Source: a bacterium (GTDB lineage Bacteria > Patescibacteriota > Minisyncoccia > Phycocordibacterales > Phycocordibacteraceae). From it: DNA of 64,000 nt. Location: positions 42,463-106,462 of the forward strand of contig JAHFMR010000002.1 of assembly GCA_023267755.1 (NCBI GenBank), given 5' to 3'. The position numbers and the translations under genes were made by a program. Numbering within the stretch: the first letter of the stretch is position 1; the number at the start of each line of letters is the position of its first letter. Below the pieces are notes generated by a model. It saw only the letters and a program-made list of their open reading frames with translations, was not told the DNA's origin and made no database searches. This document shows positions 1 through 32,128 of this stretch, piece after piece.

Positions 1-38
1 ATCTTTCGCTCGTCGCGATACCTGCAAACCTCATTACG

Positions 39-335
39 ATGCCGGTGGTCCCACTCACGATGGCACTCTCGGCGCTCGCCGGGCTTGCTGGCGTACTCTT
101 CAGCTCCTTCGCCCCGATGCTCGGCACCCTCCTCTCATTCCCAGCGTACCTATTAAATGCGTATCTCATATTTATTGCACAAAATGCGGCAGCGTTACCG
201 CTTGCCGCATTCATACTTCCCGCATTCCCGTTCTGGCTTGTCCTCGCTGCGTATGCGGGACTGATCTACTTCGCTTCTTCAAAACGCTTCTCGATGACCG
301 ACCAATTGAGCGCTGCGAGAAAAGCGTCGATATAG
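39..335 (+). CDS. Hypothetical polytopic membrane protein fragment. The ORF is open to the window start and could be the N-terminal membrane part of a ComEC-like protein.
   Basis: The ORF translates to three or more hydrophobic helices. Its 3' end overlaps the sodA 3' end on the opposite strand. There are no catalytic motifs. Confidence 0.3.
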   Translation: MPVVPLTMALSALAGLAGVLFSSFAPMLGTLLSFPAYLLNAYLIFIAQNAAALPLAAFILPAFPFWLVLAAYAGLIYFASSKRFSMTDQLSAARKASI

Positions 336-865
336 TTCTTCTTCTCGGCAGGCACATAGTCGACCATATACGCGTGCTCCCAGAGGTCGAGCGCGAGGAT
401 AATCGGGAGGCCCGCGAGTTGGCCAATTTCATGATCCCCGACAAACACTGTGTGAAGTGCCTTACCAATCGCATCATAATAGACAACGACCCAGCCGATA
501 CCGCGGCTACCAGCGACCTCTCTCACGTGCCCAATGAGCCCTCCATCTCCGTATTTCTCCTGTGCAGCTTGGCTTAATGCAGAGTGTTCGCGCTTGGCGG
601 TCGGACCGCCAAGTAACTGCTCGAAGTAATATTCGTGCATACGCATCCCGTCGAATTCAAACGCGAAACGCCGGCGGAGCTCGGCGATTGCAAATTTGTC
701 GCCATCACTCGCCTTATCGCCATACGCTGCATACCCCTTGAGTGTCTCCATAAGGAGATTCACATGCTTCACGTAGCCCTCATAGAGCGCGAGGTGCACC
801 TTCACTTGTTTCTCTGAGATCCCTTCGAGCACAGGTAGATTGAATGTTTTTGCAGTGTATGTCAT
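266..865 (-). CDS. sodA: Fe/Mn superoxide dismutase
   Basis: The C-terminal DLWEHAYMVDY motif matches the D-x-WEHAYY metal-ligand motif of Fe/Mn SODs. An N-terminal His and an MHEYYF region are also present. The start is chosen at the internal Met (MTYTAKT) to avoid the divergent ORF. Confidence 0.8.
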   Translation of the reverse strand: MTYTAKTFNLPVLEGISEKQVKVHLALYEGYVKHVNLLMETLKGYAAYGDKASDGDKFAIAELRRRFAFEFDGMRMHEYYFEQLLGGPTAKREHSALSQAAQEKYGDGGLIGHVREVAGSRGIGWVVVYYDAIGKALHTVFVGDHEIGQLAGLPIILALDLWEHAYMVDYVPAEKKNYIDAFLAALNWSVIEKRFEEAK

Positions 866-893
866 AGAGATAAAAGTACCATATACTTTATAT

Positions 894-1346
894 ATGTCTC
901 GCACCGTGCCAACGAGTGTATATGCACTACTTCTTCTTATACTCCTTGGCGTAAATATTTATTTCTACCGGATTATCCTCACGCCGAGTGCTCCGATGGT
1001 GTCAGTACTCCCGGTGGGGAAGGAAAGCGTGGTTCTCATCCGCACACAAGGGAAAACGTTCCTTATCGACACTGGTCCCGATGCGAGCGTCCTCCGCGCG
1101 CTCGGCACGGTGTTGCCGCCCTGGGAGCGGCAGCTCGACGCGGTACTCCTCACCAGCACCAAGAAAGCTTCCATCGGCGGCCTTTCTGCCATCTTCGAGC
1201 GTTACACGGTCTCGCAGCAAATTCCTCTTACTGCGAGTCGTCGTCTCATTATTGCTCCTGATACCTTTATAGATATCGTACTAACACAAAACGCCCTTGC
1301 GGGCGTCTACTTCTCGAACTCGGCTACCACAACGCGGATTAGATAG
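894..1346 (+). CDS. Membrane-anchored protein with a degenerate ComEC-type metallo-beta-lactamase-fold domain
   Basis: It has an N-terminal TM helix followed by VLPVGKESVVLIRTQGKTFLIDTGPD, a pattern that resembles the ComEC/Rec2 MBL-domain start (LDVGQGD..LIDGG). The HxHxDH metal motif is not conserved. Confidence 0.4.
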   Translation: MSRTVPTSVYALLLLILLGVNIYFYRIILTPSAPMVSVLPVGKESVVLIRTQGKTFLIDTGPDASVLRALGTVLPPWERQLDAVLLTSTKKASIGGLSAIFERYTVSQQIPLTASRRLIIAPDTFIDIVLTQNALAGVYFSNSATTTRIR

Positions 1347-1581
1347 CTCCCGCCTTCTTAAGCGCAGCAAAGGCGCCGTTCTTCTTAATCGTCTTCAATC
1401 CCTTCATCGAGACATCAACAACGACGGTCTTATTGAGTTCAGGGACAAAAATGCGACGCTTCTGGAGATTGGCCTTGCGGCGAACCTTGCCGGTGGGGTT
1501 AAACTGCGTTGCGCGAACGCGGTTAGAGTACCGCCCGCCAACTTGCGTGCTCTTGCCGGTGATTTCGCAGGCTCGTGCCAT
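1339..1581 (-). CDS. rpmB: 50S ribosomal protein L28
   Basis: MARACEITGKSTQVGGRYSNRVRATQFNPTGKVRRKANLQKRR matches the L28 signature (MAR.CE..GK....G...SH....T.R.F.PNLQ). Confidence 0.85.
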   Translation of the reverse strand: MARACEITGKSTQVGGRYSNRVRATQFNPTGKVRRKANLQKRRIFVPELNKTVVVDVSMKGLKTIKKNGAFAALKKAGAI

Positions 1582-1590
1582 AGTCGTCGC

Positions 1591-2253
1591 ATGGTACCAT
1601 TAGGCCTGCAAACGAGCAATATGGTCACCTTCTTCTCCATCGCCGTCCTTATCCTCTCTATTATTGTGCACGAGGTCGCCCACGGCTACGCCGCCGACTC
1701 GCTCGGCGACCCTACCGCCCGCCTTGCCGGCCGTCTGACCCTCAATCCGCTCCCGCACATCGATCTGATGGGTTCGATTATCCTCCCCGCACTCCTTACT
1801 TTCACCAGCTCGCCAATTCTCTTCGGCTGGGCAAAACCGGTCCCGTATAATCCGTACAATCTGCAGGCACGCCGTTGGGGCGAGACCCTGGTCGCGCTCG
1901 CAGGCAGCGCGACCAATCTCTTCCTCGCGCTTATCTTCGGGCTACTGGTGCGCTACAGCCAAACACTCGGTCTTGATCAGACCGCACTCTCACTCGCCGT
2001 GACCATCGCCTTCGTCAATCTCTTCCTTGGACTCTTCAATCTCATCCCGTTTCCACCGCTCGACGGCTTCACCGCACTACGCTCTGCACTGCCGTGGCAC
2101 CTCTCGTCTCATCTCACGCGCCTTGAGCACAGTGTTCGTGTGATGGGTCCTGTCTCACTCTTCCTGTTTCTTCTTATTTTCTCCTACCTATTCGCCGGAC
2201 CGTTTTTCAAACTTGTTTTATACATCTTCAATCTACTCACTGGCGGAGCATGA
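1591..2253 (+). CDS. Site-2 protease family (peptidase M50) membrane metalloprotease
   Basis: It carries an HEVAHG zinc motif (HExxH) inside a TM helix and a downstream LDG motif with multiple TM segments. The start is set after the rpmB end. Confidence 0.75.
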   Translation: MVPLGLQTSNMVTFFSIAVLILSIIVHEVAHGYAADSLGDPTARLAGRLTLNPLPHIDLMGSIILPALLTFTSSPILFGWAKPVPYNPYNLQARRWGETLVALAGSATNLFLALIFGLLVRYSQTLGLDQTALSLAVTIAFVNLFLGLFNLIPFPPLDGFTALRSALPWHLSSHLTRLEHSVRVMGPVSLFLFLLIFSYLFAGPFFKLVLYIFNLLTGGA

Positions 2254-2268
2254 GTTATACTTAGGCTG

Positions 2269-2679
2269 ATGGAATACCAGGTGCCGCAGTTCATTGAGGC
2301 CGAAGACAAGATTGTTGGGCCTTTAACCTTGAAGCAATTCATCTACCTCGCTGGCGGATGTGGGCTCTGCGTCGTCTCTTTCCATTTCTTGCCGATTGTT
2401 TTTGCACTTCTTATCTCGGCACTCATCGTAGCCTTTGTTGCTGCGCTTGCATTCTACACAATAAATGGGAAGCCGTTTATTGAAATGGTCGAGGCCGGCT
2501 TTAGTTATTACACACGTGCAAAGCTCTTCCTCTGGCAACATCAGGACCCGAAAATTGCGAAGGAGCCGGTCGCTCCTGCTGCTGTTCACGCACTCCGCGG
2601 GACGCCGAAACTGACGAGAGGGAAGCTCTCCGAGCTCGCGTGGTCGCTCGATATTTCTTCCAAAGGCGGACAAAAATAA
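2269..2679 (+). CDS. PrgI-family (VirB3-like) small membrane protein of a type IV secretion-like system
   Basis: MEYQVPQFIEAEDKIVGPLTLKQFIYLAGG followed by two TM helices. It sits directly upstream of the VirB4-like ATPase. The N-terminal pattern is typical of PrgI-family proteins. Confidence 0.7.
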   Translation: MEYQVPQFIEAEDKIVGPLTLKQFIYLAGGCGLCVVSFHFLPIVFALLISALIVAFVAALAFYTINGKPFIEMVEAGFSYYTRAKLFLWQHQDPKIAKEPVAPAAVHALRGTPKLTRGKLSELAWSLDISSKGGQK

Positions 2680-2680
2680 T

Positions 2681-3310
2681 ATGGCTATTACCTCGGCAAA
2701 TGCGACCCAGCAATTCGTCCCGGTCAAAGAGATTCGGAATGGCGTCATCATCCTCAAAGACGGCAGTTATCGCGGCGTGCTCATCTGCTCCTCGGTCAAC
2801 TTCGGATTGAAGTCGGCTGATGAGCAGCACGCTATTACACTTGGCTTCCAGAATTTTCTCAATACGCTCGATTTCTCGATACAAATCACCATCAATTCAC
2901 GACGGATGGATTTGCGCCCTTATCTCGCGTTTCTTGCCGAGAAAGAGCCCGATCAAAAGAGCGAACTGATGCGCATCCAGCTCCGTGAGTATATCGAGTT
3001 CATCCGATCATTTACTGACCAGTTAAATATTATGACAAAGTCCTTTTATGTCATCGTCCCATACGCACCGCACTTCTCTGCCGCAAGCTCTATAGGCTTC
3101 CTCAAACACGATGCCGGTGCGACACATATTGCAGAAAGTTCCTTCGAAGAAGACCGTGCCCAACTTGAACAGCGTCTCTCGCTCGTCGGGGGCGGGCTTG
3201 AGAGCATCGGCGTGCGTGCGGTCCCGCTCGGCACCGAAGAGGTTATTGAGCTTCTGTACCGCTCTTTCAACCCCGGCGAGCTCGAGAATCCTATTCGTCT
3301 CGACAATTGA
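2681..3310 (+). CDS. Hypothetical protein, either an accessory T4SS component or a split-off VirB4 N-terminal domain
   Basis: The 209-aa ORF is translationally coupled on both sides. Its stop is 1 nt before the VirB4-like start and its start is 1 nt after the PrgI stop. There is no TM segment. Confidence 0.55.
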   Translation: MAITSANATQQFVPVKEIRNGVIILKDGSYRGVLICSSVNFGLKSADEQHAITLGFQNFLNTLDFSIQITINSRRMDLRPYLAFLAEKEPDQKSELMRIQLREYIEFIRSFTDQLNIMTKSFYVIVPYAPHFSAASSIGFLKHDAGATHIAESSFEEDRAQLEQRLSLVGGGLESIGVRAVPLGTEEVIELLYRSFNPGELENPIRLDN

Positions 3311-3311
3311 T

Positions 3312-5129
3312 ATGGCACTCCTCGATTTCCTCAACAAGAAGAAAGAAGAAGCTCCTTCCATCCTGCCGGTATTGCCGAAGGATATCTACAATAAGGGTGC
3401 ACTTGACCTTATCGACACCATCGCCCCGACAGCACTCAAGGTGAGTCCGCGTGAGCTGGAGCTCGGCGAGAAGTTTGTTCGTGCCTTCTACACAATCTCC
3501 TATCCACGCTATCTTTCTGACAGCTGGTTCTCACCGGTCATCAATCTCGATAAAATGCTCGATGTTTCTATCTTCATCCACCCCATAGACACCGAGCAGG
3601 CGTTGCACACCTTTCAGAAGAAGGTCGCTGAATATCAGAGCCAAATTAACGAGCGCGAAGCAAAGGGGCTCGTGCGCGACCCTGCTCTCGACACCGGATA
3701 TCAAGACCTCGAGAGTCTCCGCGACAGCTTGCAACAGGCCCAAGAAAAACTTTTTGACGTCGGGCTGTATCTCGCACTCTACGGCGACACTAAGGAGGAG
3801 ATAGAGAAGACCGAAGGGAACATTCGTGGCCTTCTCGACTCGAAGCTGGTCTACACCAAGCCGGCACTCTTCCAACAAGAGCAAGGCTTCCGTTCTTGCC
3901 TCCCACTCGGCACTGACGAGCTCCTCGTCAACTCCAAGCTGAACTCCTCACCGCTTTCCTCCATCTTCCCCTTTGTTTCCTTCGACCTCACGAGCGACCG
4001 CGGCATTCTCTATGGGATAAACAGACATAATTCTTCGCTCATTCTCTTCGATCGTTTCTCCCTTGAGAACTACAACTCGGTCGTCTTCGCGAAGTCAGGC
4101 TCCGGCAAGAGCTATGCCACTAAGCTTGAGATTATCCGCTCGCTTATGTTCGGTACCGACGTCATCGTCATCGACCCTGAACGCGAATATGAGCAGCTCG
4201 CTGAAGCGACCGGCGGACGCTCGTTCCATATCTCACTCTCCTCCGAGCACCACATCAATCCATTTGACCTTCCGCCGGTGAAGGAAGACGAGGACCCGAA
4301 GGATATTCTGCGTTCTAATATCATCAATCTCGTTGGGCTCTTCCGCATTATGCTCTCCGGTCTCTCGCCAGAAGAAGACGCGATTATTGATCGTGCGGTG
4401 AGCGAGACATATGCGCTTAAGGATATTACTGGCGATACTGACTTTACCGGTGCCGAGCCGCCGCTTCTCTCTGACTTCGAGCAAGTGCTCTCGGGGATGG
4501 AGGGAAGTGCTTCACTCCTCGAACGCCTTTCCAAGTACACCCGCGGCACGTGGGCAGGATTCCTCAATCAACCGACCAATATCGATATCAAGCAACAGTT
4601 TGTGGTCTTCTCGGTGCGCGATATGGAGGATGAACTGAAGCCGATCGCGATGTATATCCTCACGCACTATATCTGGAACGCGGTCCGTCACGAGTTGAAA
4701 AAGCGTCTCCTGATTATCGACGAGGCGTGGTGGATGATGAAGAGTGACGACACCGCAAGCTTCCTCTACAGCCTCGCTAAGCGCGGCCGCAAGTACTATC
4801 TCGGCGTCTGCACGATTACTCAGGACGTCGAAGACTTCCTTAAGAGCCCGTATGGTCGCCCGATTCTTACCAACTCATCGCTCCAACTTCTCTTGAAGCA
4901 GTCGCCCACCACTATCGATGTTCTCCAGAAGACATTCAACCTTACCGACGAGGAGAAGTATCTCCTGCTCGAAGCGGGGGTGGGGGAAGGGCTCTTCTTT
5001 GCCGGACTGAAACACGTCGCTATAAAGGTCGTCGGAAGCTACACCGAGGATCAGATCATCACCTCTGACCCCTCACAGCTCCTCGCGATAAAGAAGGAAA
5101 AGGATCGCCATGCCGCTGAGAAGAGCTAA
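3312..5129 (+). CDS. virB4: VirB4/TrbE/CagE-family type IV secretion ATPase
   Basis: It has a Walker A motif (VVFAKSGSGKSY), a Walker B/DEAW-like motif (LLIIDEAWWMM) and the C-terminal architecture of VirB4-like conjugal-transfer ATPases. The start is taken at MALLDFL because the upstream in-frame extension overlaps the preceding gene. Confidence 0.85.
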   Translation: MALLDFLNKKKEEAPSILPVLPKDIYNKGALDLIDTIAPTALKVSPRELELGEKFVRAFYTISYPRYLSDSWFSPVINLDKMLDVSIFIHPIDTEQALHTFQKKVAEYQSQINEREAKGLVRDPALDTGYQDLESLRDSLQQAQEKLFDVGLYLALYGDTKEEIEKTEGNIRGLLDSKLVYTKPALFQQEQGFRSCLPLGTDELLVNSKLNSSPLSSIFPFVSFDLTSDRGILYGINRHNSSLILFDRFSLENYNSVVFAKSGSGKSYATKLEIIRSLMFGTDVIVIDPEREYEQLAEATGGRSFHISLSSEHHINPFDLPPVKEDEDPKDILRSNIINLVGLFRIMLSGLSPEEDAIIDRAVSETYALKDITGDTDFTGAEPPLLSDFEQVLSGMEGSASLLERLSKYTRGTWAGFLNQPTNIDIKQQFVVFSVRDMEDELKPIAMYILTHYIWNAVRHELKKRLLIIDEAWWMMKSDDTASFLYSLAKRGRKYYLGVCTITQDVEDFLKSPYGRPILTNSSLQLLLKQSPTTIDVLQKTFNLTDEEKYLLLEAGVGEGLFFAGLKHVAIKVVGSYTEDQIITSDPSQLLAIKKEKDRHAAEKS

Positions 5130-5790
5130 GGTCGAGCCTGAGCCGCCGGTGATGACCTGGAGGAAGGCCGCACCTGTCCTCGCAGTAGCGGGCATCTTCG
5201 ACTTCCTGCGTCTCCTCTGTATCTTCTTCTGGTTCCTCGGGCCGGCGCTCGCAGCGATTTACTGCGTTAACAAAGTGAGTGGGTGGGTGGGGTCACTATG
5301 GGGATTAACCGCTACAGTGTGCGCCGCGACGTCTGGTGCCGCTGGCATTGCCGCCTCGGAAATAACCATACCGCTCGGTGCCATTCTCGCTGACGCGGCC
5401 GCCCTCATCGGCTTTCTCACGCTCGGGATGATTATTATTATGAGTAATAAGCGCATTCTGAAAACCGTCACTTCAGCCCCGCTCCAGTTCACCGCGGCCT
5501 TCGGCGTGAGTGCTATTCCTTTTATCGGCTCTGTCTTGCCTGCTTTCACCTTCATCCTCTGGCGACTGTATCGAGGACAGATTCGTGTCGAAAAAGCGGC
5601 CCATAAAAAATGGGGGGAGGAGACGGCTGCTGCCAGAAAGGAGACACGGAATCAGCAACAAGCGCAACTACTTCAGCAGCAGGCAGTCATACAGGCACAG
5701 ACAGCACAAGAGGCGGCCAATGATGAGGCTTTTGCTCAAACAGAAAATGAAGAAAACATATCCCCTGAAGAAGAGCCGTTGGCGGCCTAA
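5110..5790 (+). CDS. Hypothetical polytopic membrane protein with a Q-rich C-terminal tail, likely a T4SS-like locus component
   Basis: It has 4-5 TM helices and a C-terminal QQAQLLQQQAVIQAQTAQ low-complexity tail. It overlaps the virB4 stop by 20 nt, indicating operonic coupling. Confidence 0.55.
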   Translation: MPLRRAKVEPEPPVMTWRKAAPVLAVAGIFDFLRLLCIFFWFLGPALAAIYCVNKVSGWVGSLWGLTATVCAATSGAAGIAASEITIPLGAILADAAALIGFLTLGMIIIMSNKRILKTVTSAPLQFTAAFGVSAIPFIGSVLPAFTFILWRLYRGQIRVEKAAHKKWGEETAAARKETRNQQQAQLLQQQAVIQAQTAQEAANDEAFAQTENEENISPEEEPLAA

Positions 5791-5819
5791 CCTCCTTGTG
5801 CAGGCTATATACTAGAAGT

Positions 5820-6803
5820 ATGCGTCCGTATCTTCTGTCGGCACTTATTCTCTTGTCGCCCTTTGCCGCCCTCGCACAGCTCGGCGATACGCCGGGGAGT
5901 CTTGATCCTTTCACACTGTCAGTCAGCCCGCAGTATGTGGCCCCCTACAGCCGAGCGACCCTTTTTGTACAATCATCTTCCCTCAATCTCGCTAATGCGA
6001 CGATGGTTGTTACCGTTGCTGGCAAAGACATCTACCAAGGTAGTGTGCAGTCTATCCCTATTCCCGCAGGGAAGGCGGGAGTTGCTATCGTAGTGAGAGT
6101 GAAAATTACGTCCGGCGGCACGCCGTATACACAGACGGTGTCTATCCAGCCCCAGGACGTCTCCATTGTCGTGGAGCCGGTCTCTTCGGCTCCGGTGCTC
6201 TACCCCGGGAAGCCCGCGATACCCGCGGGGGGCAGCTCGCGCATCGTCGCGGTGGCAAATATGCGCACTGCCCGCGGCGCGCCGGTCGACCCGACGACGC
6301 TCTCGTATGCTTGGGCAGTCGATGGAACCCAGATTGAGAACTCCTCCGGCATTGGCAGGTCATCTCTCTTGGTCGCCTCGCCCATTGCCTATCGTTCTCG
6401 CCCGGTCTCGGTCACGGTAACGAACTCAGACAGCACGCTCATCGGCGGTGATTCGACTACCCTCTATGCAAAGGATCCGTCCGTGCGCATCTACGCAAAT
6501 GATCCACTCCTCGGTATCCGCTTTGACCACGCTCTCACGGAGACTTATGCTATCTCCGGTGCAGAAGCCACTCTCTACGCCGCCCCGTTTTCATTCCCGA
6601 CCACCGGCGGCGCTCCGCTCCTCCAGTGGTTCCTTAATGGCGCTGTAGCACAAACAGGCGCTTCTATAACGCTCCGGCCGACTGGAAATGGGCAGGGAGA
6701 CGCCTCACTCTCGCTCACTGCCTCTGCTGGGCAGTCTACGCCGGCGACCGCGAGTCTCTCGCTCATCTTCGGTACCGCAAGCTCTAACTTCCTTGGCCTA
6801 TGA
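5820..6803 (+). CDS. Hypothetical secreted protein
   Basis: It has an N-terminal signal peptide (MRPYLLSALILLSPFAALAQ) and is Ser/Thr/Ala-rich and beta-rich. Its stop overlaps the next ORF start. Confidence 0.55.
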   Translation: MRPYLLSALILLSPFAALAQLGDTPGSLDPFTLSVSPQYVAPYSRATLFVQSSSLNLANATMVVTVAGKDIYQGSVQSIPIPAGKAGVAIVVRVKITSGGTPYTQTVSIQPQDVSIVVEPVSSAPVLYPGKPAIPAGGSSRIVAVANMRTARGAPVDPTTLSYAWAVDGTQIENSSGIGRSSLLVASPIAYRSRPVSVTVTNSDSTLIGGDSTTLYAKDPSVRIYANDPLLGIRFDHALTETYAISGAEATLYAAPFSFPTTGGAPLLQWFLNGAVAQTGASITLRPTGNGQGDASLSLTASAGQSTPATASLSLIFGTASSNFLGL

Positions 6804-7450
6804 AACGTCTGACCCTCACTTCTTTTATCCTTTTCCTCCTCTTTACCTCTTTTGCTACGCTCGCACACGCAACAGGGTTCGTCCCGCTCGCTCCTATCTC
6901 TGGCCTCACGACAGTCCAGCCGACAGATGCCGGATTGTCTACCTTCTTCAACAATCTCTACAAATATCTCATCGGCCTTTCCGCGGCACTCGCGGTCATT
7001 ATGATTGTCTGGGGCGGGCTCGAGATCTCTACCCAGGACTCGGTCAGTAAACAGGGGGAGGGGAAAGAGAAGATACGCGGAGCGCTCTTCGGCCTCGCGC
7101 TCGTCCTCTCACCCGTGCTTGTCTTCACCATCATCAACCCCAAGATTTTGAACCTGTCGGTTGGTCTCGAAAAACTTAATGTGAATGCTCCGACGTCAAT
7201 TTTTGGGTCCTTTGGATCTTCCCCTTCATCTAGTCTTATTCCTAGCACCGCAACAAGTGGCCCCTCCTTCCCGCAATCTGAATTCCAGACAAGCTGTTCA
7301 TCATACTCAAATTCAACCAATGAAGTGATAATTGCATCTCTTCCAAAGACTTGCTCCGATTTCAATGGAACATCTATCGCTATGCTTTGTTGTTTCCCGA
7401 ATGGCGGTGTGAATACAACTAATTTCTCATGTTGCGTACACCCGAAATAA
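6800..7450 (+). CDS. Putative TrbC/VirB2-like pilin-type protein with a Cys-rich C-terminal extension
   Basis: A signal peptide is followed by two hydrophobic helices separated by a short polar loop (LSAALAVIMIVWGGLEIST ... ALFGLALVLSPVLVFTII), which is the VirB2/TrbC topology. The C-terminal tail contains 8 Cys. Confidence 0.45.
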   Translation: MKRLTLTSFILFLLFTSFATLAHATGFVPLAPISGLTTVQPTDAGLSTFFNNLYKYLIGLSAALAVIMIVWGGLEISTQDSVSKQGEGKEKIRGALFGLALVLSPVLVFTIINPKILNLSVGLEKLNVNAPTSIFGSFGSSPSSSLIPSTATSGPSFPQSEFQTSCSSYSNSTNEVIIASLPKTCSDFNGTSIAMLCCFPNGGVNTTNFSCCVHPK

Positions 7451-7455
7451 TTTCT

Positions 7456-8643
7456 ATGCGCCGAACACTTATTATTACCGGAATAGTCGTTGTCATCATC
7501 GGAGTCGGGGTCGCTATTTATTTCCTCTTCTTCGCGAAGCCGGCGATTACTGTCCCCGACACGACTCTTCCTTCTGCGGGGCAGGGGACCCTCCCTTCGG
7601 GGAGCGCTTCGGACGCTACAGCCCCCCAGAGCGGCCCCAAGGCCGTTACTGCGCGCTTGGTTAAGATTAGTGCTGGCCCGGTCGTCCCGGGCGAGGCGGT
7701 CGTTGATAAACGCGGATCCACTGCGAGCTCATCGCCTGAGGTTGTGGTCAATTACATCGAGCGCCAGAGTGGTAATGTCTTTATCTACTCTGAGACTACC
7801 CGGACACTCACTCGCGTCTCCAACAAAACACTCCCGGGTATCCAGTCCGCCGCGTGGCTCTCCGATGGCTCGGCGGCGCTGGTGCGGTATCTCTCGGGCG
7901 CGGACTCCTCCACGATAAACACTTACGCACTCTTCGCGACAAGCTCAGACGGGTTTTTCTTATCCCAAAACCTTACCGATGTCGCTGTCTCTTCGACAAA
8001 CATCCTGACGCTCGCCTCTGGTGTGAACGGTTCTGTCGCCTCACTCTCGAACAAAGACGGTTCCCATTCGGTCTCCATCTTCACTTCGCCGCTCTCTGCC
8101 CTCCGGCTCTCGTATGCGGGGAAGGATCATTATCTCGCTTTCACCAAGCCTTCAAATGCTCTTGCCGGTGGCGCATTTCTTGTTGATACCGCTGGGAATT
8201 TTTCCCGTGTCGGTGGCGCCCACAACGGTCTTGTCGCGCTTGCGAGTCCGAGCGGCAAATGGGTTCTTATCAGCTCGGCCCGCGGAGGCACGATGCAGCT
8301 GGAACTGGTAGACACTACTACCAGTGAGAGTATTGCTCTCCCGGTCGCCACTATCGCGGATAAATGCGTGTGGGCTACTGATGATTCGGCCATCTACTGT
8401 GGTGTTCCGACAACGTCTCCCGCTGGCGCTGTGTATCCTGATGACTGGTATCAGGGTGCGGTGCACTTCTCTGATCGTATCTGGAAGATTCAGGTCGCCG
8501 GCCGCTATGCACAGCTCGTGCTCGATTTTCCAAAGGAGGCCAAGGATGTGTTGGATGCCTGGGCACTTGCGCTCGACCCATCAGAGACGACGCTCGTCTT
8601 TGTTAATAAGAATGATGGCTCTCTCTGGAGCTATTCTCTATAG
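7456..8643 (+). CDS. Hypothetical membrane-anchored extracytoplasmic protein, probably a beta-propeller-like fold
   Basis: It has a single N-terminal TM anchor and a long Ser/Thr/Gly-rich ectodomain. It is the last gene of the co-directional block downstream of virB4. Confidence 0.5.
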   Translation: MRRTLIITGIVVVIIGVGVAIYFLFFAKPAITVPDTTLPSAGQGTLPSGSASDATAPQSGPKAVTARLVKISAGPVVPGEAVVDKRGSTASSSPEVVVNYIERQSGNVFIYSETTRTLTRVSNKTLPGIQSAAWLSDGSAALVRYLSGADSSTINTYALFATSSDGFFLSQNLTDVAVSSTNILTLASGVNGSVASLSNKDGSHSVSIFTSPLSALRLSYAGKDHYLAFTKPSNALAGGAFLVDTAGNFSRVGGAHNGLVALASPSGKWVLISSARGGTMQLELVDTTTSESIALPVATIADKCVWATDDSAIYCGVPTTSPAGAVYPDDWYQGAVHFSDRIWKIQVAGRYAQLVLDFPKEAKDVLDAWALALDPSETTLVFVNKNDGSLWSYSL

Positions 8644-9366
8644 GCCGTCCGTGACAAGCCGGCGGCGGACATAGAGCTCTTGCAGTGAACCGGCAAGGTT
8701 CGTGGTGATAAAGTAGAGCGCGATAGCACTCGAGGTGGTGTAGGAAATAGTTCCGATGAGGAAGGGAAATACATATTTCAGCTGCATTCCCATCACTTTC
8801 TGAAAATCGTTCTGAACTCCTTTTGTGTCCGAAGGCTTCATCGTACCTGAGAGCGAGAGGTGTGCCTGGAGGAATTGGGTGAGGCCCGCAATAACCGCAA
8901 GAATAAGGCTCTTTCCGGCGACCGAGAGAATCCCGAGGAATTCGAGCGACACGAGATGTGGAAGGGGTGTGGCTGTATAGAGCCGGGCGGTATTGATAGT
9001 CGAGAATGGCTCGTAGAGGAAGACAAAATAGAGCGCGAGGAGGACGGGGATCTGGATAAATGCCGAGAGAATACTGACAAACGGGTTCACCTGCGCTTCG
9101 CGGTAGAGATCGAGTGTCTCGAGCGCTTCTTTTTCCTTATCACCCTTATGCTTCTCTTTCAGTTCTTTTATCTTGGGCTCCAGTATCTTTATCGCTCGTT
9201 GAGTGCGTGCTGCAGAGAGTGAGAAAGGGAGCAGAATGAGCCTGATGATTATCGTGAGGATGATAACCGCGACTCCCACATCGCCCCCGGGGACGAGCGC
9301 GACGAGCGCGACGAGCGTGTTATAGATCGGGTTATAAAAAAAGGAGTTGAAGAGAGAAGAGATCAC
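8638..9366 (-). CDS. yidC: Membrane protein insertase YidC (short form)
   Basis: It has a YidC/Oxa1-like core with conserved TM helices and the LYREAQVNPF and IQIPVLLALYFVF motifs. It lies immediately downstream of rnpA in the canonical origin arrangement. Confidence 0.85.
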   Translation of the reverse strand: MISSLFNSFFYNPIYNTLVALVALVPGGDVGVAVIILTIIIRLILLPFSLSAARTQRAIKILEPKIKELKEKHKGDKEKEALETLDLYREAQVNPFVSILSAFIQIPVLLALYFVFLYEPFSTINTARLYTATPLPHLVSLEFLGILSVAGKSLILAVIAGLTQFLQAHLSLSGTMKPSDTKGVQNDFQKVMGMQLKYVFPFLIGTISYTTSSAIALYFITTNLAGSLQELYVRRRLVTDGL

Positions 9367-9383
9367 AAGGGTATTGTACGTTA

Positions 9384-9695
9384 TTAACGAATTTTAGAAA
9401 GAATATCGGCGAGTTCTGCTTGTATATCCTGATAAGACATCCGTGCAACGGTCGCGCGCGGGAAGAGGATAAGGGCGGCAGGGAGAAGTGGAGTAGCACG
9501 GAGTACTGAGAGAATCTGGCGTTTTATCCTGTGCCGTGTCACCGAAAGCCGCGCAATCTTCTTGGGCACCACTACCGCGTACCCCGTAGCTGCTGCGGGG
9601 ATGATGGCCGTAAAATTGGCTGAGGAGAGTCGCTTCCCCGCAGAGAGCGCCGCAGGGAAGGATGCTCGAGAAAATCTTCTCCGACGAGGAAACAC
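9384..9695 (-). CDS. rnpA: Ribonuclease P protein component
   Basis: It is a basic protein carrying a RnpA-type RNR-like motif (VTRHRIKRQILSVLR). It is positioned between rpmH and yidC. Confidence 0.8.
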   Translation of the reverse strand: MFPRRRRFSRASFPAALSAGKRLSSANFTAIIPAAATGYAVVVPKKIARLSVTRHRIKRQILSVLRATPLLPAALILFPRATVARMSYQDIQAELADILSKIR

Positions 9696-9701
9696 AGTAC
9701 C

Positions 9702-9845
9702 CTAGACGGACGTTGTAAGACTCTTTCGTCCGACACGCCGACGGCCCTGGACAATCTTGCGGCCAGAGGCTGTTTTGCTCCGAGTAAGGAAGCCGTGCGT
9801 CTTAGCACGCTTCCTTTTCTTCGGCTGATAGGTCATTTTCGCCAT
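9702..9845 (-). CDS. rpmH: 50S ribosomal protein L34
   Basis: Hand translation of the minus strand gives [47 protein letters not shown], the canonical L34 sequence. At 47 aa it is below the ORF-track cutoff and so not listed there. Confidence 0.9.
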
Positions 9846-9943
9846 ACTGAATGCAAATTAGGTTATACCCATGATACTAACAGGTTCTCCCCGAAACACC
9901 ACCCTGTCTTGTTTTAGTGTAAAAGCGTATACTCCAGAATATT

Positions 9944-11293
9944 ATGGACAAAGGGAATCCGAAGGAATTGTGGGAATACATTCTTACTCAGGTTGAACTC
10001 TCTGTTTCTCCAGCAAACTTCAATACATGGTTCCGAAACAGCTTCATCGTAAAGATTGAAGATGGAGTTATCTATGTCGGCGTGCCGAGTCAATTCTTCA
10101 AAGACTGGTACCTTAAGAAGTTCCACACACTCCTTCTAAAGATTGTCCGTGATATTTCTTATGAGTTCCGCAATATTGAGTATCTCATTGTGAAGGATGA
10201 ACGCCGTAAGGTGCAGAAGGAGGTAAAAAACACTCGTGGCGTACTCGAACTTCCGCTTGATGAGTTTTATATCAACAAAAGCGATAGTCTAAACCCACGT
10301 TACACCTTCGACACGTTCGTCATTGGTTCCTTTAATAATCTCGCTTATGCAGCAGCGCAGGCGGTGCTTACGCGTCCTGGTATCACCTATAACCCTCTCT
10401 TTATTTACGGTGACACGGGGCGCGGCAAGACCCATTTAATTCAAGCTATTGGTAATCAGTATAAGAAACAATATCCAGGGCGTAAGGCGTTTTATCTGAC
10501 TTCAGAGAAGTTTACAATCGACTACACTGACTCGGTTCAGGCCGGTACGGCAAACCGTTTTAAAGATAAATATCGTCAGTATGATCTGCTTATTATGGAT
10601 GATGTGCAGTTCCTATCGAAGAAACTAAAGACTGAGGAGGAGCTCTTCCATCTCTTTAACACACTTCACGACACTAATAAGCAGATTATTTTCTCCTCTG
10701 ATCGTGCGCCTGCGGCTATTCCTGATATAGCCGACCGCCTGAAGGGGCGCCTCGCGAGTGGTATGACCATAGATATCGGCGAACCCGATCCTGAATCCCG
10801 TATGGCGATAGTGAAGAGGAAAGCTGCTTCTCACGGGGTGATGCTCTCTGATGAAGTGGTTGAGTATGTCGCCACTACTATGAGTGGTTCTATTCGTGAA
10901 CTTGAGGGTATGGTGAATAATCTTATCTGTCACGCACAAGTAAAAGGTTTTGCGCCGGATATTCTTGAAGTTCGTCAGTCACTCCGATCATTTACCCGCC
11001 CCCAGAAGACTATTTCTGTAAAAAATGTCGTTGATAAGGTTGCTTCTTTTTATGGTATTGATGAAGAGAGTATTTATGAGAAGACTCGTAGAAGGGAGGT
11101 GGTGCGCCCGCGCCAAGTAATTATGTACATCCTTCGAGAAGATTTTAATATTTCATATCCCACTATTGGAACAAAACTTGGTGGTCGTGATCACACGACT
11201 GTTATCCACTCCTGTGAAAAAATAAAACGTGAAGTAGTTGTTGATACTGATCTCGCAAAAGAAATTCAGAATATTCGCACTCTTCTTGTATGA
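9944..11293 (+). CDS. dnaA: Chromosomal replication initiator DnaA
   Basis: The AAA+ Walker A GDTGRGKTHL and Walker B LLIMDDVQF motifs are present, together with a C-terminal DnaA-box-binding HTH domain (IGTKLGGRDHTTVIHSCEKI). Confidence 0.95.
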   Translation: MDKGNPKELWEYILTQVELSVSPANFNTWFRNSFIVKIEDGVIYVGVPSQFFKDWYLKKFHTLLLKIVRDISYEFRNIEYLIVKDERRKVQKEVKNTRGVLELPLDEFYINKSDSLNPRYTFDTFVIGSFNNLAYAAAQAVLTRPGITYNPLFIYGDTGRGKTHLIQAIGNQYKKQYPGRKAFYLTSEKFTIDYTDSVQAGTANRFKDKYRQYDLLIMDDVQFLSKKLKTEEELFHLFNTLHDTNKQIIFSSDRAPAAIPDIADRLKGRLASGMTIDIGEPDPESRMAIVKRKAASHGVMLSDEVVEYVATTMSGSIRELEGMVNNLICHAQVKGFAPDILEVRQSLRSFTRPQKTISVKNVVDKVASFYGIDEESIYEKTRRREVVRPRQVIMYILREDFNISYPTIGTKLGGRDHTTVIHSCEKIKREVVVDTDLAKEIQNIRTLLV

Positions 11294-11405
11294 CTTCTTT
11301 CAACGTATTGTACACAGGTTATCTTTTTGAAAAGAGTAAAAATAATCAATATATACAAGCATTTTTTGACCTATCCCCACTATCCACTATACTAATAAGC
11401 ATCGT
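11294..11405. promoter_or_regulatory. Candidate oriC segment (dnaA-dnaN spacer) with an AT-rich unwinding stretch and degenerate DnaA boxes
   Basis: The AT-rich run aaaagagtaaaaataatcaatatatacaag is followed by ctATCCCCActATCCACTa, two 7/9 matches to TTATCCACA. The spacer sits between dnaA and dnaN. Confidence 0.5.
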
Positions 11406-12506
11406 ATGATTATTTCTTTAGATAAAAAAATATTCTCTGAAGCAGTGCATACTGTTGCTCGTTTTGCAGAGCGGAAGAGTGGAACACTTCCTGTACTCTC
11501 ATCCATCCTTATTCTTGCTGGAGATGAAGGAATTAAATTACGTGCAACAAATCTTGAAACAGGTATTGATTTAAAACTCGAAGGAACCTGTACTACAAAA
11601 GGAGTAGTTGCTGTCCCCGCAGTAGTCTTACAACAAATTGCTGGATCACTCACAAATGAGGGGAGTATTACTCTTGAACACACTGGAGATATTCTTTCAC
11701 TCTCAAGCGGCACAGGGAAAAGTTCAATAAAAACAATTCCTTACGATGATTTCCCCTCAATTCCATTCCCAGAAAATCCAAAAAATAGAATCATCCTCCC
11801 GGGAATCATTTTAAAAAACCTCTTCACCACTATCGCCTCCTGCGCTTCCTCCTCAACTATCCGCCCAGAACTCTCAAGTATCTATCTTTCTATTGAAGGA
11901 GGAGTATTAACAGCTGTTGCAACAGACTCATTCAGGCTCGCAGAAAAGAAAGTTCCCCTCACTAATAAAGGGACACAAGGAAAATTCCTTATTCCCGCGA
12001 AGAATGCACTCGATATAGCGCAAGCACTTCCAGATGACGATATTATTATTTCATTTGATGAGCACCAATGCGCTTTTGTGAGTCAGGGTGGTATGCTCGT
12101 TTCGCGTCTTACGAACGCAACCTACCCCGACTACCGGCAAATAATTCCAAAAGAGTCTGTTGTTGAAGCGGTAATACTTAGGAAAGATTTTGAGACCGCA
12201 CTAAAACGAACAACTATCTTCTCAGATGCATTCCAGAAAATACGTATCAGCTTCGATCAGAAGAAGAATAAATTTATATTATTCGCGCGAAATACTGATA
12301 TTGGAGAATCCACCGAGACAATCTCTGCAAACATATCTGGAACTGCACTCGACCTCTCGTTTAATCACCGGTATCTCTCAGCGGTGCTCGCACTTACTAA
12401 TGCCGAGAGTCTCTCGCTTCTTGCTGCGGGTATCGGCCGCCCACTTATCATCAAGGGTGTTGGAGACACCTCACTCCTCTACCTCGTTTCACCGATGAAT
12501 CAGTAG
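11406..12506 (+). CDS. dnaN: DNA polymerase III beta sliding clamp
   Basis: It is 366 aa, has a three-domain clamp pattern and lies immediately after dnaA. Confidence 0.9.
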   Translation: MIISLDKKIFSEAVHTVARFAERKSGTLPVLSSILILAGDEGIKLRATNLETGIDLKLEGTCTTKGVVAVPAVVLQQIAGSLTNEGSITLEHTGDILSLSSGTGKSSIKTIPYDDFPSIPFPENPKNRIILPGIILKNLFTTIASCASSSTIRPELSSIYLSIEGGVLTAVATDSFRLAEKKVPLTNKGTQGKFLIPAKNALDIAQALPDDDIIISFDEHQCAFVSQGGMLVSRLTNATYPDYRQIIPKESVVEAVILRKDFETALKRTTIFSDAFQKIRISFDQKKNKFILFARNTDIGESTETISANISGTALDLSFNHRYLSAVLALTNAESLSLLAAGIGRPLIIKGVGDTSLLYLVSPMNQ

Positions 12507-29179: not shown

Positions 29180-29253
29180 ATTTTTTATGTGCGCCCGGAT
29201 GGATTTGAACCATCGACCCACGGCTTAAAAGGCCGCTGCTCTACCAGACTGAG
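29180..29253 (-). tRNA. tRNA-Lys (anticodon TTT)
   Basis: The hand-folded cloverleaf has a gcgcccg/cgggcgc acceptor stem, a cttttaa anticodon loop and a ggttcaaatcc T-arm. Confidence 0.85.
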
Positions 29254-29381
29254 CTACGGGCGCGAGTGAGGAAAAGAGAATGAGTGGCCTCAGTCATTCT
29301 CTTTCTCCGAACGAGCGCACAGTATGGTAGTCCATACGGGCGCGCTCATTTTCGTAATCTACTCTTTTTGTACCGTTTTTC

Positions 29382-30329
29382 CTAGTAGCTGAACGCATCC
29401 ACTGTGTTCCCTTGGGTATCGAGAAGCTTCACCAATTCATGTTTAGTGCGCCACATCGAGTTGGATCGGCCGAGATACACGCGCCACGTGGCGCTCTCAA
29501 AATCGGAATCGCTCCTGTGTGCCTCGACACACCCGTTGTAATTTAAGTACTTAATCAAAAAGCTCTGGCACACGCCTGAGATAGTAGGAGGCGGAGAGAG
29601 CACGACCTGACAGCGGGAGAGCTTGTCGACGTAGTCGATGCAAACCGCGTCACGGATATAGCCGGTGCCGTAGTCGGTCACGAGTTCACTTGCGGGGGTA
29701 GGGCAGTTCTGCGGGAGAGAGGGAGTAAATGTTTGGAATGTGCTGAAATAACCGATGCACTTATTCTCACGGAAGGATGCCCCGATGGGGGATTGGCCCG
29801 AGACAATAATCGCACGTTCGCCAGGAGTAAGTACGATGTCCTGGGCCGCGTTCACCACACCGCTCGTTGGTACCTCGGTTCCCTTCGGGATGACAACCGC
29901 ATTGCCGGTTGCGTCACTTGAGAGCGTCCATCCGGAAATATCAACCGGTGCGCTTGCGCTTAAGGCGACAGAAATCTCCACGTATTCGTTCTTTGGGTTC
30001 AGAGAGCCCGCGCCCGCGACATAGTGGTTCATCGAGATGAGTCCGCGATACGGAGAAGGAGTCCCGAAAGTACTTCCTCCGACGAACGTGGGGAGGCTCG
30101 AGCCACTGCCGCTGTTCGATGAGCCTGATGAGATTGAGACACCAGAACCGCCAATACCAAAGGGCGCACGCGGGAAGTTAAGATACGTGCCGCCGCCAAG
30201 CACATCGGGAGCAGCGAGCCGTGGACCAGCAAAAGCGAGAGGATGGAGCGGGCCGCCCATCGCCGCCCAGACAAGAAAGATGAAAACGAAGATGCCTATG
30301 AAGAACCACGCATCGTGCATATCACTCAT
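29382..30329 (-). CDS. Membrane-anchored protein with a lamin-tail-domain (LTD)-like region
   Basis: An N-terminal TM and a Gly/Ser-rich linker are followed by NEYVEISVALSASAPVDISGWTL, which resembles the LTD motif (EYVEL.N....VDLSGW.L). The C-terminal region contains 6 Cys. Confidence 0.55.
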   Translation of the reverse strand: MSDMHDAWFFIGIFVFIFLVWAAMGGPLHPLAFAGPRLAAPDVLGGGTYLNFPRAPFGIGGSGVSISSGSSNSGSGSSLPTFVGGSTFGTPSPYRGLISMNHYVAGAGSLNPKNEYVEISVALSASAPVDISGWTLSSDATGNAVVIPKGTEVPTSGVVNAAQDIVLTPGERAIIVSGQSPIGASFRENKCIGYFSTFQTFTPSLPQNCPTPASELVTDYGTGYIRDAVCIDYVDKLSRCQVVLSPPPTISGVCQSFLIKYLNYNGCVEAHRSDSDFESATWRVYLGRSNSMWRTKHELVKLLDTQGNTVDAFSY

Positions 30330-30360
30330 AGGGGAATAGTAGCAAATTTACACGGAGTGG

Positions 30361-30906
30361 TCAGTGATGAGACGAGAGGGAGGCCTTCAAGCGGGCATCC
30401 TTACCCTGAACACTGTCGGGGATAGCCTGGAGCGCCTTACGCGCCTCGCGCTCGGTGTAGCCGAGTGCGACGAGCGTGTCGAAGACTTCGCCATCGGCGT
30501 CGTCGTGTGCAGCAGGGCCAACTTTCTCAGATAATTCAACCAGCATCTTCTCAGCGCTCTTCTTTCCCAGTCCGACAATCTTGGTCAGATAATTCAGATC
30601 GCGCTTGCTGATGGCACCTTCAAGCGCGGCGCGCGGCGCGCGACGTAGCACCGAGAGAGCAGTCTTGGGCCCCACACCCGAGACCGAGAGCATAAGCTCG
30701 AAGAAGTCGCGATCGGCCACCTCGCTGAAGCCGTAGAGTTCCATCCCGTCCTGTTTGACCGCGAGATGCGTGGCGAGGGTCGCATTGGTGCCCATCGAGA
30801 GCGCTTGAGGCGCACTCATCCGTACCTCGATACCGAAGCCAGCAACCTCGATGACTGCCCCTACCGGAGTTATCGAGAGCACCTTTCCGCTAATCTGTCG
30901 GATCAT
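30361..30906 (-). CDS. ruvA: Holliday junction DNA helicase subunit RuvA
   Basis: MIRQISGKV is the OB-fold start, followed by HhH motifs (LSVSGVGPKTA) and C-terminal domain III. The start is at an internal Met of a longer ORF. Confidence 0.85.
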   Translation of the reverse strand: MIRQISGKVLSITPVGAVIEVAGFGIEVRMSAPQALSMGTNATLATHLAVKQDGMELYGFSEVADRDFFELMLSVSGVGPKTALSVLRRAPRAALEGAISKRDLNYLTKIVGLGKKSAEKMLVELSEKVGPAAHDDADGEVFDTLVALGYTEREARKALQAIPDSVQGKDARLKASLSSHH

Positions 30907-30961
30907 GGCGCTATAGTACCATTTGCCACAGGACGGGAGATACGGTATATAGAGAAGACAT

Positions 30962-31231
30962 ATGGCAATCACCAGTTCCGCAAAGAAGGCTATCCGCGTA
31001 GCGCAGAAGAAGCGCGTGTTTAACTTGCGTCGCAAGGGAGCTCTCTCCACTACGACCAAGACGCTCACCAAGGCGCTCGCGGCGAAGGATGTGAAGGAAG
31101 CAGAAAAGCTCCTCCCGGCGGCCTATAAGGCAATCGACAAGGCGATGAAGCGCGGTGTGATCAAGAAGAACACAGCAGCACGCAAGAAGTCTCGTCTCGC
31201 TCTCTCCATCAAACGCGCTTCGGCGAAGTAA
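30962..31231 (+). CDS. rpsT: 30S ribosomal protein S20
   Basis: MAITSSAKKAIRVAQKKRVFNLRRK is a basic helical S20 pattern. Confidence 0.85.
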   Translation: MAITSSAKKAIRVAQKKRVFNLRRKGALSTTTKTLTKALAAKDVKEAEKLLPAAYKAIDKAMKRGVIKKNTAARKKSRLALSIKRASAK

Positions 31232-31239
31232 TCTACTTG

Positions 31240-31311
31240 TGCTCCCACGAGGAATCGAACCTCGATCTCAGGCTTCGGAGGCCTACGCTCTATCCGTTGA
31301 GCTATGGGAGC
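31240..31311 (-). tRNA. tRNA-Arg (anticodon CCG)
   Basis: The cloverleaf has a gctccca/tgggagc acceptor stem, a ctccgaa anticodon loop and a T-arm cgagg-ttcgatt-cctcg. Confidence 0.8.
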
Positions 31312-31334
31312 AGTACAAAAACGATATCACCAAT

Positions 31335-32018
31335 TTAATGCCTCTGCTCAATTCGCGACGCAATCTCATGTCCGAGGGCAATCATTTCCCGTTGGATGAC
31401 ATTGGAAGAGTAATGCAGATTGCAGATGCCGTAAAAGTTTTTGCGGTAGCTTTTTCTGCGCCCGCTACGAGGTTTCAGATAAATTTTCCAAAACTGCGAA
31501 GCAGGAACCTTAAGTTTTTCAGACCAATATTCGCGCACTTCTTCGGGATTGTGGTAGTAATGGATTTGTAAACCGACGCGGAAGCGTGTTTCATCGATAG
31601 AATAATGCTTGCGTAACAGGGCGATAAACAAGCAGACAAGTTTTGGGTCCGTGTTCGTGAATTTCATATTATTATCTGTTTTGCCACCTTCTCCCCAGTA
31701 GAGCATCGCGAGTAGAGATTTCCCGACATCTTCCCGGTGCACAGGGATGGAGTTAGCGAGCTTTTTTGCGGTACGGTTGGCTGTCTCGAAGCGCAATTCT
31801 TTATTACGCCGTATGACGATAAGAGCGGCCGCACGAGCTTTCTTTAAATGTGCGATTTGTCGAGAACGATCTGGCTTTCTTCCGGCCTGACTCGACCAGA
31901 CGGAAAGAGTACTTTTCGGAATACCAAGAGCTTTCTTGATTTCAGCGTAAGTTTTTCCATTTTCAATTAACTTCAGTGCCTTCTTTTTAATCTCCTCGGA
32001 ATATCGTGCTCCTGCCAT
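31335..32018 (-). CDS. HTH-domain protein with a LAGLIDADG-like motif (putative homing-endonuclease-like protein)
   Basis: It has an N-terminal HTH (KKALKLIENGKTYAEIKKALGIPKSTL). A single LAGLIDADG-like motif KSLLAMLYWGEGGK is followed by the helical segment NTDPKLVCLFIALLRKHY. It is flanked on both sides by tRNA-Arg genes. Confidence 0.5.
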   Translation of the reverse strand: MAGARYSEEIKKKALKLIENGKTYAEIKKALGIPKSTLSVWSSQAGRKPDRSRQIAHLKKARAAALIVIRRNKELRFETANRTAKKLANSIPVHREDVGKSLLAMLYWGEGGKTDNNMKFTNTDPKLVCLFIALLRKHYSIDETRFRVGLQIHYYHNPEEVREYWSEKLKVPASQFWKIYLKPRSGRRKSYRKNFYGICNLHYSSNVIQREMIALGHEIASRIEQRH

Positions 32019-32128
32019 AAATCCATTGTATAAGATTTATGTGCCGTGAGTATATAGCTACGTTCAATATTGTGGATATCAGTAGAATTACTGAACGATG
32101 AGAGCAGTGCTCTCTTTATACTACCTTG

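Follow-up and report, generated by a model that had tools for sequence, protein, structure and literature searches.

Does the VirB4 ATPase of a type IV secretion system (T4SS) locus in a Patescibacterial chromosome consist of two polypeptides, or has a single gene been broken? The question is raised by a 64,000-nucleotide stretch of DNA (assembly GCA_023267755.1, contig JAHFMR010000002.1, positions 42,463–106,462 of the forward strand; hereafter the window), in which an open reading frame (ORF) of 209 codons, ORF1, ends in a TGA codon one nucleotide before the ATG of a 605-codon frame, ORF2, that carries the VirB4 ATPase motifs. An initial annotation, made from the letters of the sequence, had named three options for this junction: a genuine two-polypeptide VirB4, a programmed frameshift, or a sequencing or assembly indel. 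We conclude with high confidence that two distinct, co-transcribed genes specify the ATPase, one for a soluble TrsD-like piece and one for the ATPase body, whose products would re-associate and are collinear with full-length VirB4.

The junction between ORF1 and ORF2

Coordinates re-read from the sequence agreed with the initial annotation, which had placed the ORF1 stop at 3308–3310 and the start of the ATPase at 3312 in another frame. The junction reads CGTCTCGACAAT TGA T ATG GCA (by codons, CGT CTC GAC AAT TGA T ATG GCA), and ORF2 lies in the +1 frame relative to ORF1 (3312 – 2681 = 631 = 3 × 210 + 1). The combined length, earlier put at about 815 amino acids (aa) and described as VirB4-sized, came to 814 aa (209 + 605), which is indeed the size of a VirB4 protein. 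The junction between prgI and ORF1 immediately upstream likewise consists of a stop, one base and a start (TAA-T-ATG). Since both junctions share the stop-T-ATG form, the one-base spacing is simply how this operon is laid out, and it fits translational coupling.

The frame of ORF2 stays open upstream of its ATG for about 200 nt, to another ATG at 3111, a point absent from the initial annotation. The 67-aa stretch encoded there is S/R-rich junk, and in relatives the frame ahead of ORF2 is open for anything between 3 and 645 nt, so this upstream open frame has no meaning. A 672-aa extended ORF2 starting at ATG 3111 was considered and rejected, because the extension is junk and unconserved and because 80 of 80 relatives begin at the conserved ATG.

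ORF1 and ORF2 match consecutive parts of VirB4

ORF2 scored 375.8 bits against the NCBIfam VirB4 profile conju_CD1110 (NF045971; cut-off 325), with its aa 31–570 covering profile positions 185–733 of 752. Profile positions 1–119 were matched instead by the separate ORF1 (aa 9–126, E = 2.1e-6), which also matched the equivalent region of NCBIfam VirB4_plasma, the Mbov_0397 VirB4 model (E = 6.4e-8). ORF2 further matched Pfam P-loop_TraG (E = 8e-26, 91 bits against a cut-off of 25.8) and the VirB4 structure PDB 4AG5 (E = 8e-43), and a motif script located its Walker A and Walker B motifs (Table 1). Its aa 116–559 aligned to aa 291–741 of TrwK/VirB4 in solved structures, which leaves about the first 175 TrwK residues unrepresented in ORF2. 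Taken together, ORF2 comprises the second half of the VirB4 N-terminal domain (NTD) followed by the C-terminal ATPase domain (CTD) with Walker A and B, and ORF1 (~23 kDa) is the counterpart of the first ~200 residues of full-length VirB4, that is, of the first half of the classical NTD. Thus the proposal of the initial annotation that ORF1 supplies the missing VirB4 N-terminal region is borne out by the profile positions; the opposite pattern, with ORF1 unlike VirB4 N-termini and ORF2 aligning end-to-end with complete VirB4 proteins, was not found. A tblastn search with ORF1 reached plasmid proteins annotated TrsD at E = 2e-6.

A hydrophobicity check detected no hydrophobic segments in either ORF1 or ORF2. 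The earlier statement that the ATPase part, given there as 606 aa, lacks the N-terminal membrane-associated domain of VirB4 therefore holds for the missing N-terminal region but not for its description as membrane-associated: ORF1 has no transmembrane (TM) segment and is not a membrane domain. Anchoring falls instead to the PrgI/VirB3-like protein, the product of a gene of its own just upstream.

In a fused relative, P0217 (797 aa, Candidatus Colwellbacteria), aa 5–213 aligned with ORF1 aa 6–202 (41% identity) and aa 226–796 with ORF2 aa 29–598 (56% identity). Searching with P0217 returned a fused clade of more than 115 clusters of 775–807 aa, all carrying PF26593 and PF19044 (P-loop_TraG), from NCBI, JGI, ENA and Logan assemblies; the named clusters were assigned to Candidatus Colwellbacteria or, more broadly, to Patescibacteria or the Parcubacteria group. 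The AlphaFold model of P0217, built from a 144-sequence alignment, had a mean predicted local distance difference test score (pLDDT) of 82, with a confident N-terminal subdomain (blocks of 86–97) and a dip to 75–78 over residues 211–230, where the split forms are divided. In Foldseek the model matched R388 TrwK/VirB4 (8rtd_O) over its full length (833 aligned columns, E = 1e-27). From the alignment of P0217 with ORF1 and then ORF2, combined with this full-length structural match, we conclude that ORF1 and ORF2 together amount to one complete VirB4 and are collinear with the full-length form.

The fused form has a 12-aa linker where split forms have about 7 + 28 (~35) extra conserved junction residues. 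In the R388 system the VirB4 NTD spans residues 15–400, is wrapped by VirB3 and mediates dimerisation (PMC9259494). This span and the alignment of ORF2 with TrwK place the cut inside the classical NTD rather than at the NTD/CTD boundary, at an estimated ~TrwK residue 175 as extrapolated from the alignment and the NTD span.

Stand-alone proteins dominated the ORF1 searches. More than 7,900 homologues were found, of which the best 120 were all stand-alone proteins of 209–224 aa. A scan of 1.8 billion representatives with ORF1 returned 2,341 relatives, and the best 150 of these (50% clustering) were nearly all stand-alone (195–440 aa), with a single fused protein, P0217 (797 aa). The stand-alone TrsD-like proteins P0192, P0224 and P0236 and about 40 further representatives from other lineages reach 280–443 aa through long, low-complexity C-terminal tails; these tails are rich in P, Q, A, G and T, disordered, and lie beyond the conserved ~200-aa domain.

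One locus of the fused type is damaged. In a co-assembled metagenome-assembled genome (MAG), positions 1282–3470 of locus L085 hold a Colwellbacteria-type fused virB4 that lacks aa 90–192 and changes frame, called as a 600-aa protein (P0289), which reflects either misassembly or gene decay. P0289 was considered as a recent second split within the fused clade and rejected, being an internal deletion/frameshift of a fused gene.

The split is conserved among related genomes

Eighty species-level genomes encoding a relative were fetched and every junction was analysed. All 80 had a stop after ORF1 and an ATG for ORF2, with ORF2 aligned from residue 1; on the question of whether orthologous loci encode one fused or two separate ORFs, raised by the initial annotation, the two were thus separate throughout. 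The ORF1 stop was TAA in 43 genomes, TGA in 28 and TAG in 9. Spacers ranged from 1 to 39 nt, one pair of genes overlapped by 14 nt, and in five genomes 0.7–1.0 kb with other genes (up to 978 nt) lay between the halves. Relative to ORF1, ORF2 was in frame 0, +1 and +2 in 24, 33 and 23 genomes, respectively. Multiple-of-three spacers were confined to one related group. Stop-codon read-through was considered for relatives with in-frame 33-nt spacers and rejected, as sister loci have extra in-frame stops.

The gene order PrgI, ORF1, ORF2 was kept in 80/80 related loci, and ORF2 and ORF1 were the best-conserved genes of the cluster (median identity across related loci 90% and 78%, compared with 63% for PrgI, 59% for the pilin and 40% for a 226-aa membrane protein). 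Both termini at the junction, the C-terminal tail of ORF1 (NPGELENPIRLD) and the N-terminus of ORF2 (MALLDFL...VPVLPKDIY), were nearly invariant across relatives. These results demonstrated that the split is ancient and under strong purifying selection. The same protein and the same junction were also present in three independent assemblies of the same organism (ERZ27297709, ERZ27279942 and SRR14366756).

The inserts between the halves in the five genomes (L007 1899–2876, L027 4631–5349, L034 3478–4362, L052 4637–5441 and L056 4628–5506) have a common content, a 23S_rRNA_IVP or bAvd-like four-helix-bundle gene (PF05635, E ~1e-35), accompanied by a second gene that varies, encoding a SET domain in L007 and DUF5680 in L056. 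In all five, a CCTAGCGCCT-like motif lies 10–12 nt 5' of the virB4 ATG and the stop of the upstream gene is TAG. The insert looks like a small mobile cassette targeting the trsD–virB4 intergenic point.

Several labels among the related genomes call for care. At its trsD/virB4 junction, a 2-kb contig filed as 'Candidatus Woesearchaeota archaeon' (L080, DAHXMN010000149.1) is identical to two contigs from Patescibacteria MAGs (L077 and L078), and it has probably been mis-binned. Paceibacteria-type loci at ~80% identity are present in many MAGs with the title 'uncultured Candidatus Saccharibacteria', a sign that taxonomic labels may be loose. The MAGs SO_2017_GW1_48 (L004 and L036) and WY3.bin61 (L070 and L078) contain the locus in two versions apiece, which suggests mixed bins.

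Weighing a single gene product and an accessory role against a two-chain VirB4

Could the two frames still yield, or once have yielded, one chain? A programmed +1 ribosomal frameshift, or a bypass of the stop codon, at TGA-T-ATG would give a single VirB4 of ~815 aa, as the two halves together make up a full VirB4 and ORF2 here lies in the +1 frame, open for 200 nt ahead of its ATG. Such a mechanism does not fit relatives in which ORF2 occupies all three frames behind spacers of variable length, an overlap or whole inserts; no slippery heptamer was found near the junction by the motif script, the upstream open stretch is of erratic length in relatives and junk in the window, and the ATG of ORF2 is kept in every genome together with its nearly invariant first residues MALLDFL. 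We therefore assign this option, the second of the initial annotation, a negligible probability. An indel introduced by sequencing or assembly, or a recent pseudogenising frameshift, could instead have cut an originally single gene. A G5 homopolymer at 3188 lies inside the region where both frames are open, and damaged genes of this kind exist, as in the fused virB4 of L085. However, the identical junction in three independent assemblies, the same split in all 80 species-level genomes and the thousands of stand-alone homologues speak against it, and in the ORF1 frame the peptide that follows 3188 (GGGLESIGVRAVPLGTEEVIELLYRSFNPGELENPIRLDN) hardly varies between species, while the alternative frame is junk. 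The indel option can be dismissed for practical purposes, and the remaining option of the initial annotation, a genuine two-polypeptide VirB4, is upheld by the stop and ATG in 80/80 genomes, the three frames and the variable spacers.

A different objection accepts two genes and questions their common function: ORF1 might descend from a VirB4 N-terminus and now act as an autonomous accessory factor, such as an assembly chaperone, a regulator or an adaptor for a subset of VirB4 subunits. R388 VirB3 is bound only by the central VirB4 within each dimer (PMC9259494), so an unequal need for the N-terminal piece is conceivable. Many stand-alone homologues have evolved independently, acquiring the disordered P/Q/A-rich C-terminal tails (280–443 aa) described above or, in Firmicutes, N-terminal TM helices; TrsD homologues of Gracilibacteria are encoded away from virB4 (PMC12102498); and, given the spacers and inserted genes, coupling is not strict. 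In contrast, an entire fused clade functions with a covalent 1:1 linkage of the two parts, adjacency and order are kept in all 80 loci with both junction termini nearly invariant, and ORF2 by itself lacks the ~200 N-terminal residues present in every full-length VirB4. We consider an accessory role unlikely. Some of our own results also weigh against two halves of one VirB4. The match of ORF1 to the TrsD/TraD family itself (NCBIfam NF041427) was weak (E = 0.01, 15.7 bits against a curated cut-off of 200). PF26593 (TraC-like) was assigned to the identical ORF1 protein in precomputed tables, whereas our Pfam profile scan of ORF1 gave no match; a PDB sequence search with ORF1 gave one spurious match (E = 0.87). 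The link of ORF1 to VirB4 was therefore drawn from the NCBIfam profiles, the fused homologues and structure. AlphaFold reached a pLDDT of 51 for ORF1 alone, from a shallow alignment of ~80%-identical sequences; this model was dropped for fold comparison and the fold of ORF1 was judged solely via the fused homologue, whose model has a predicted template modelling score (pTM) of 0.59 and hence uncertain relative domain placement. Coupling cannot be obligatory, as in some relatives the halves are separated by AT-rich spacers of 30–39 nt or by whole genes. Finally, re-assembly of the halves and docking on PrgI are extrapolated from fused homologues and, by analogy, from a distant Gram-negative structure.

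A working model for a two-chain VirB4

We strongly favor a VirB4 made from two co-transcribed genes, in which the tight TGA-T-ATG junction would couple translation of ORF1 to that of ORF2 and the two polypeptides would re-associate non-covalently into a complete VirB4 protomer. The near-invariant ORF1 tail and the ORF2 N-terminus probably contribute to the interface. That the fused form swaps the ~35 junction residues for its short linker is consistent with these termini forming a non-covalent interface. By analogy with R388, where VirB3 wraps the NTD and the NTD dimerises, the TrsD-like piece would link the ATPase to PrgI, and it probably docks the ATPase hexamer on this PrgI/VirB3 membrane anchor.

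For annotation, this means that the junction should not be flagged as a frameshift or a pseudogene, and that the ~210-aa 'hypothetical protein' encoded 5' of Patescibacterial virB4 should be named VirB4 N-terminal (TrsD-like) subunit. The motor of the essential Patescibacterial T4SS would be a two-chain enzyme with natural fused controls in Colwellbacteria, and the split and fused forms offer a convenient handle, for structure and genetics, on how VirB4 docks on VirB3.

The same split site on Firmicutes plasmids

By tblastn, stand-alone ORF1 homologues were present on 407 plasmids, 290 of them from Bacillus and others from Clostridium, Geobacillus, Paenibacillus and haloarchaea. Geobacillus pGspE55-1 and a Halobacillus plasmid have the order PrgI, TrsD-like protein (318 and 345 aa), DUF87 ATPase (636 and 622 aa), and the 345-aa Halobacillus protein is annotated 'TrsD'. 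The Geobacillus pair is divided where the pair of the window is: in P0217 coordinates, its TrsD-like protein stops at aa 213 and the ATPase starts at aa 226. The split site is therefore homologous between the window and the Firmicutes plasmids.

The Firmicutes TrsD-like proteins differ from ORF1 in their length (318–345 aa) and their N-terminal TM helices, which ORF1 lacks. In two Firmicutes plasmid loci (L083 4881–5837 and L084 4638–5675) one or several such helices precede the VirB4-N-like domain. No separate PrgI is annotated upstream of the TrsD-like gene on the Halobacillus plasmid, so a VirB3-like anchor may be fused to the TrsD-like protein there as its TM region.

A neighbour-joining tree of the N-terminal domain (~210 columns, no bootstrap values, rooted on a Firmicutes plasmid protein) placed the fused Colwellbacteria proteins as one group nested among stand-alone forms. 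With split forms also present in Firmicutes and most classes of Patescibacteria, this placement suggests one old fission, followed by secondary re-fusion in Colwellbacteria. A wider proposal, that a single ancient fission is common to pGO1-type Firmicutes plasmids and all Patescibacteria, was reversed in Colwellbacteria and freed a junction that is a functional module boundary, is tentative, and we rate it as possible but somewhat doubtful. The identical breakpoints, the nested fused clade and five independent cassette insertions exactly at the junction are compatible with it. If it holds, the small subunit could vary in dose or gain TM helices or disordered tails on its own, and a small mobile cassette (a 23S_rRNA_IVP gene and cargo) would be tolerated at the junction or drawn to it.

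Genomic setting of the locus

The window is part of a Paceibacteria (Kaiserbacteria-like) chromosome in which a core T4SS locus adjoins dnaA (Table 1). PrgI has a hydrophobic (TM) hairpin at about aa 25–65 and is encoded upstream of ORF1 in 80/80 loci. The M50 metalloprotease gene lies directly 5' of prgI in 72 of 82 related loci (median identity 70%), and the protease may be a functional part of the T4SS locus, perhaps by processing the pilin or substrates. The 226-aa membrane protein encoded downstream of ORF2 had no Pfam or NCBIfam match and may be a VirB6-like channel component. All Pfam matches of the 335-aa protein were sub-threshold, and the 395-aa protein had no family match. Neither a relaxase nor a coupling protein was seen in window positions 1–12,506. 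The origin-region genes at 8638–12506 were taken from the Pfam annotations of an identical 36-kb contig, with coordinates offset by 364 bases, and the call of the 395-aa gene came from the same contig. Elsewhere in the window (29189–39454), nine tRNA genes (Lys, three Arg, Ser, two Leu, Val and His) lie within 10 kb on both strands, with nothing unusual about them.

Table 1. Features of the T4SS locus and the adjoining origin region, in window coordinates.
Feature	Positions	Strand	Basis and remarks
M50-type intramembrane metalloprotease	1297–2253	+	Pfam Peptidase_M50, E = 9e-13
PrgI family protein (VirB3-like membrane anchor), 136 aa	2269–2679	+	Pfam PrgI, E = 1.1e-10
ORF1, soluble TrsD-like protein	2681–3310	+	209 codons + TGA at 3308–3310
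Junction TGA-T-ATG	3308–3314	+	ORF1 stop, one-base spacer, ORF2 start
ORF2, VirB4 body	3312–5129	+	605 codons + stop; ATG at 3312
Walker A / P-loop AKSGSGKSY	4089–4115	+	Motif script; in ORF2
Walker B LLIIDEAW	4707–4730	+	Motif script; in ORF2
Polytopic membrane protein, 226 aa, same operon	5110–5790	+	3–4 hydrophobic segments; 67 related loci
Secreted/surface protein with signal peptide, 335 aa, operon member	5796–6803	+	N-terminal hydrophobic segment; 62 loci
VirB2-like T4SS pilin, 216 aa	6800–7450	+	Pfam T4SS_pilin, E = 8.9e-10; TrbC/VirB2, E = 0.001
Single-pass membrane or secreted protein, 395 aa, last cluster gene	7456–8643	+	Gene call; one N-terminal TM
yidC	8638–9366	-	Pfam
rnpA	9384–9695	-	Pfam
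dnaA	9944–11293	+	Pfam
dnaN	11406–12506	+	Pfam

Comparison with known systems

The arrangement has been published, so that little new is added here. Quinonero-Coronel et al. (2025) reported that, of the T4SS components in Patescibacteria, a TrsD homologue adjoining virB4 is the most abundant. They described the function of TrsD as unknown and, crediting Guglielmini et al. (2014), the protein as remotely homologous to the VirB4 N-terminus (PMC12102498); the word TrsD does not occur in the main text of the 2014 paper. Table S3 of Quinonero-Coronel et al. lists VirB3(PrgI), FATA_TrsD, VirB4 and VirB2 as consecutive genes, the Paceibacteria T4SS locus sits by dnaA, dnaN and rnpA, and the TrsD homologue is essential in S. 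epibionticum (PMC12102498). In the same organism, transposon sequencing showed the T4SS (SEML1_0006–0019) to be essential for epibiotic growth (Wang et al., 2023; PMC10633639), and no T4SS had been reported as essential to the organism bearing it before that of Patescibacteria (PMC12857230). Term searches of the main and supplementary text of PMC12102498 found no explicit statement that TrsD and VirB4 make up one collinear VirB4, and neither the fused Colwellbacteria clade nor the breakpoint shared with Firmicutes plasmids. Our minor additions are thus the split site common with Firmicutes plasmids, the Colwellbacteria re-fusion, which is probably secondary, and the gene cassette at the junction.

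The TrsD + TrsE (TraD + TraE) pair of the pGO1/pSK41 subclass of MPF-FATA and the Bacillus, Geobacillus and Halobacillus pairs are like the window in combining PrgI, a VirB4-N-like protein and an ATPase of ~620–640 aa. However, the Firmicutes plasmid proteins share only 23–32% identity with those of the window, and their systems are plasmid-borne conjugation machines, whereas the window holds a chromosomal core locus. Full-length VirB4 proteins, namely R388 TrwK (PDB 7O41/8RTD), the CD1110 family of Gram-positive integrative and conjugative elements and the Colwellbacteria forms, have the same domains, order and ATPase motifs in one chain; in the window that chain is cut inside the classical NTD. 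VirB3–VirB4 fusions of some conjugative systems likewise repackage the VirB3, VirB4-N and VirB4-C modules, but by fusion rather than fission (PMC12102498). No such fusion is reported in Patescibacteria (PMC12102498) and, unlike in those fusions, PrgI is a separate gene in the window. Compared with the Patescibacteria T4SS described so far (PMC12102498, PMC10633639), the window is alike in its PrgI/TrsD/VirB4/VirB2-like cluster and its dnaA/dnaN/rnpA neighbourhood and shows no substantive difference. Its two-polypeptide VirB4 is real, ordinary and already known as the TrsD + VirB4 arrangement, of which the window provides one more member.

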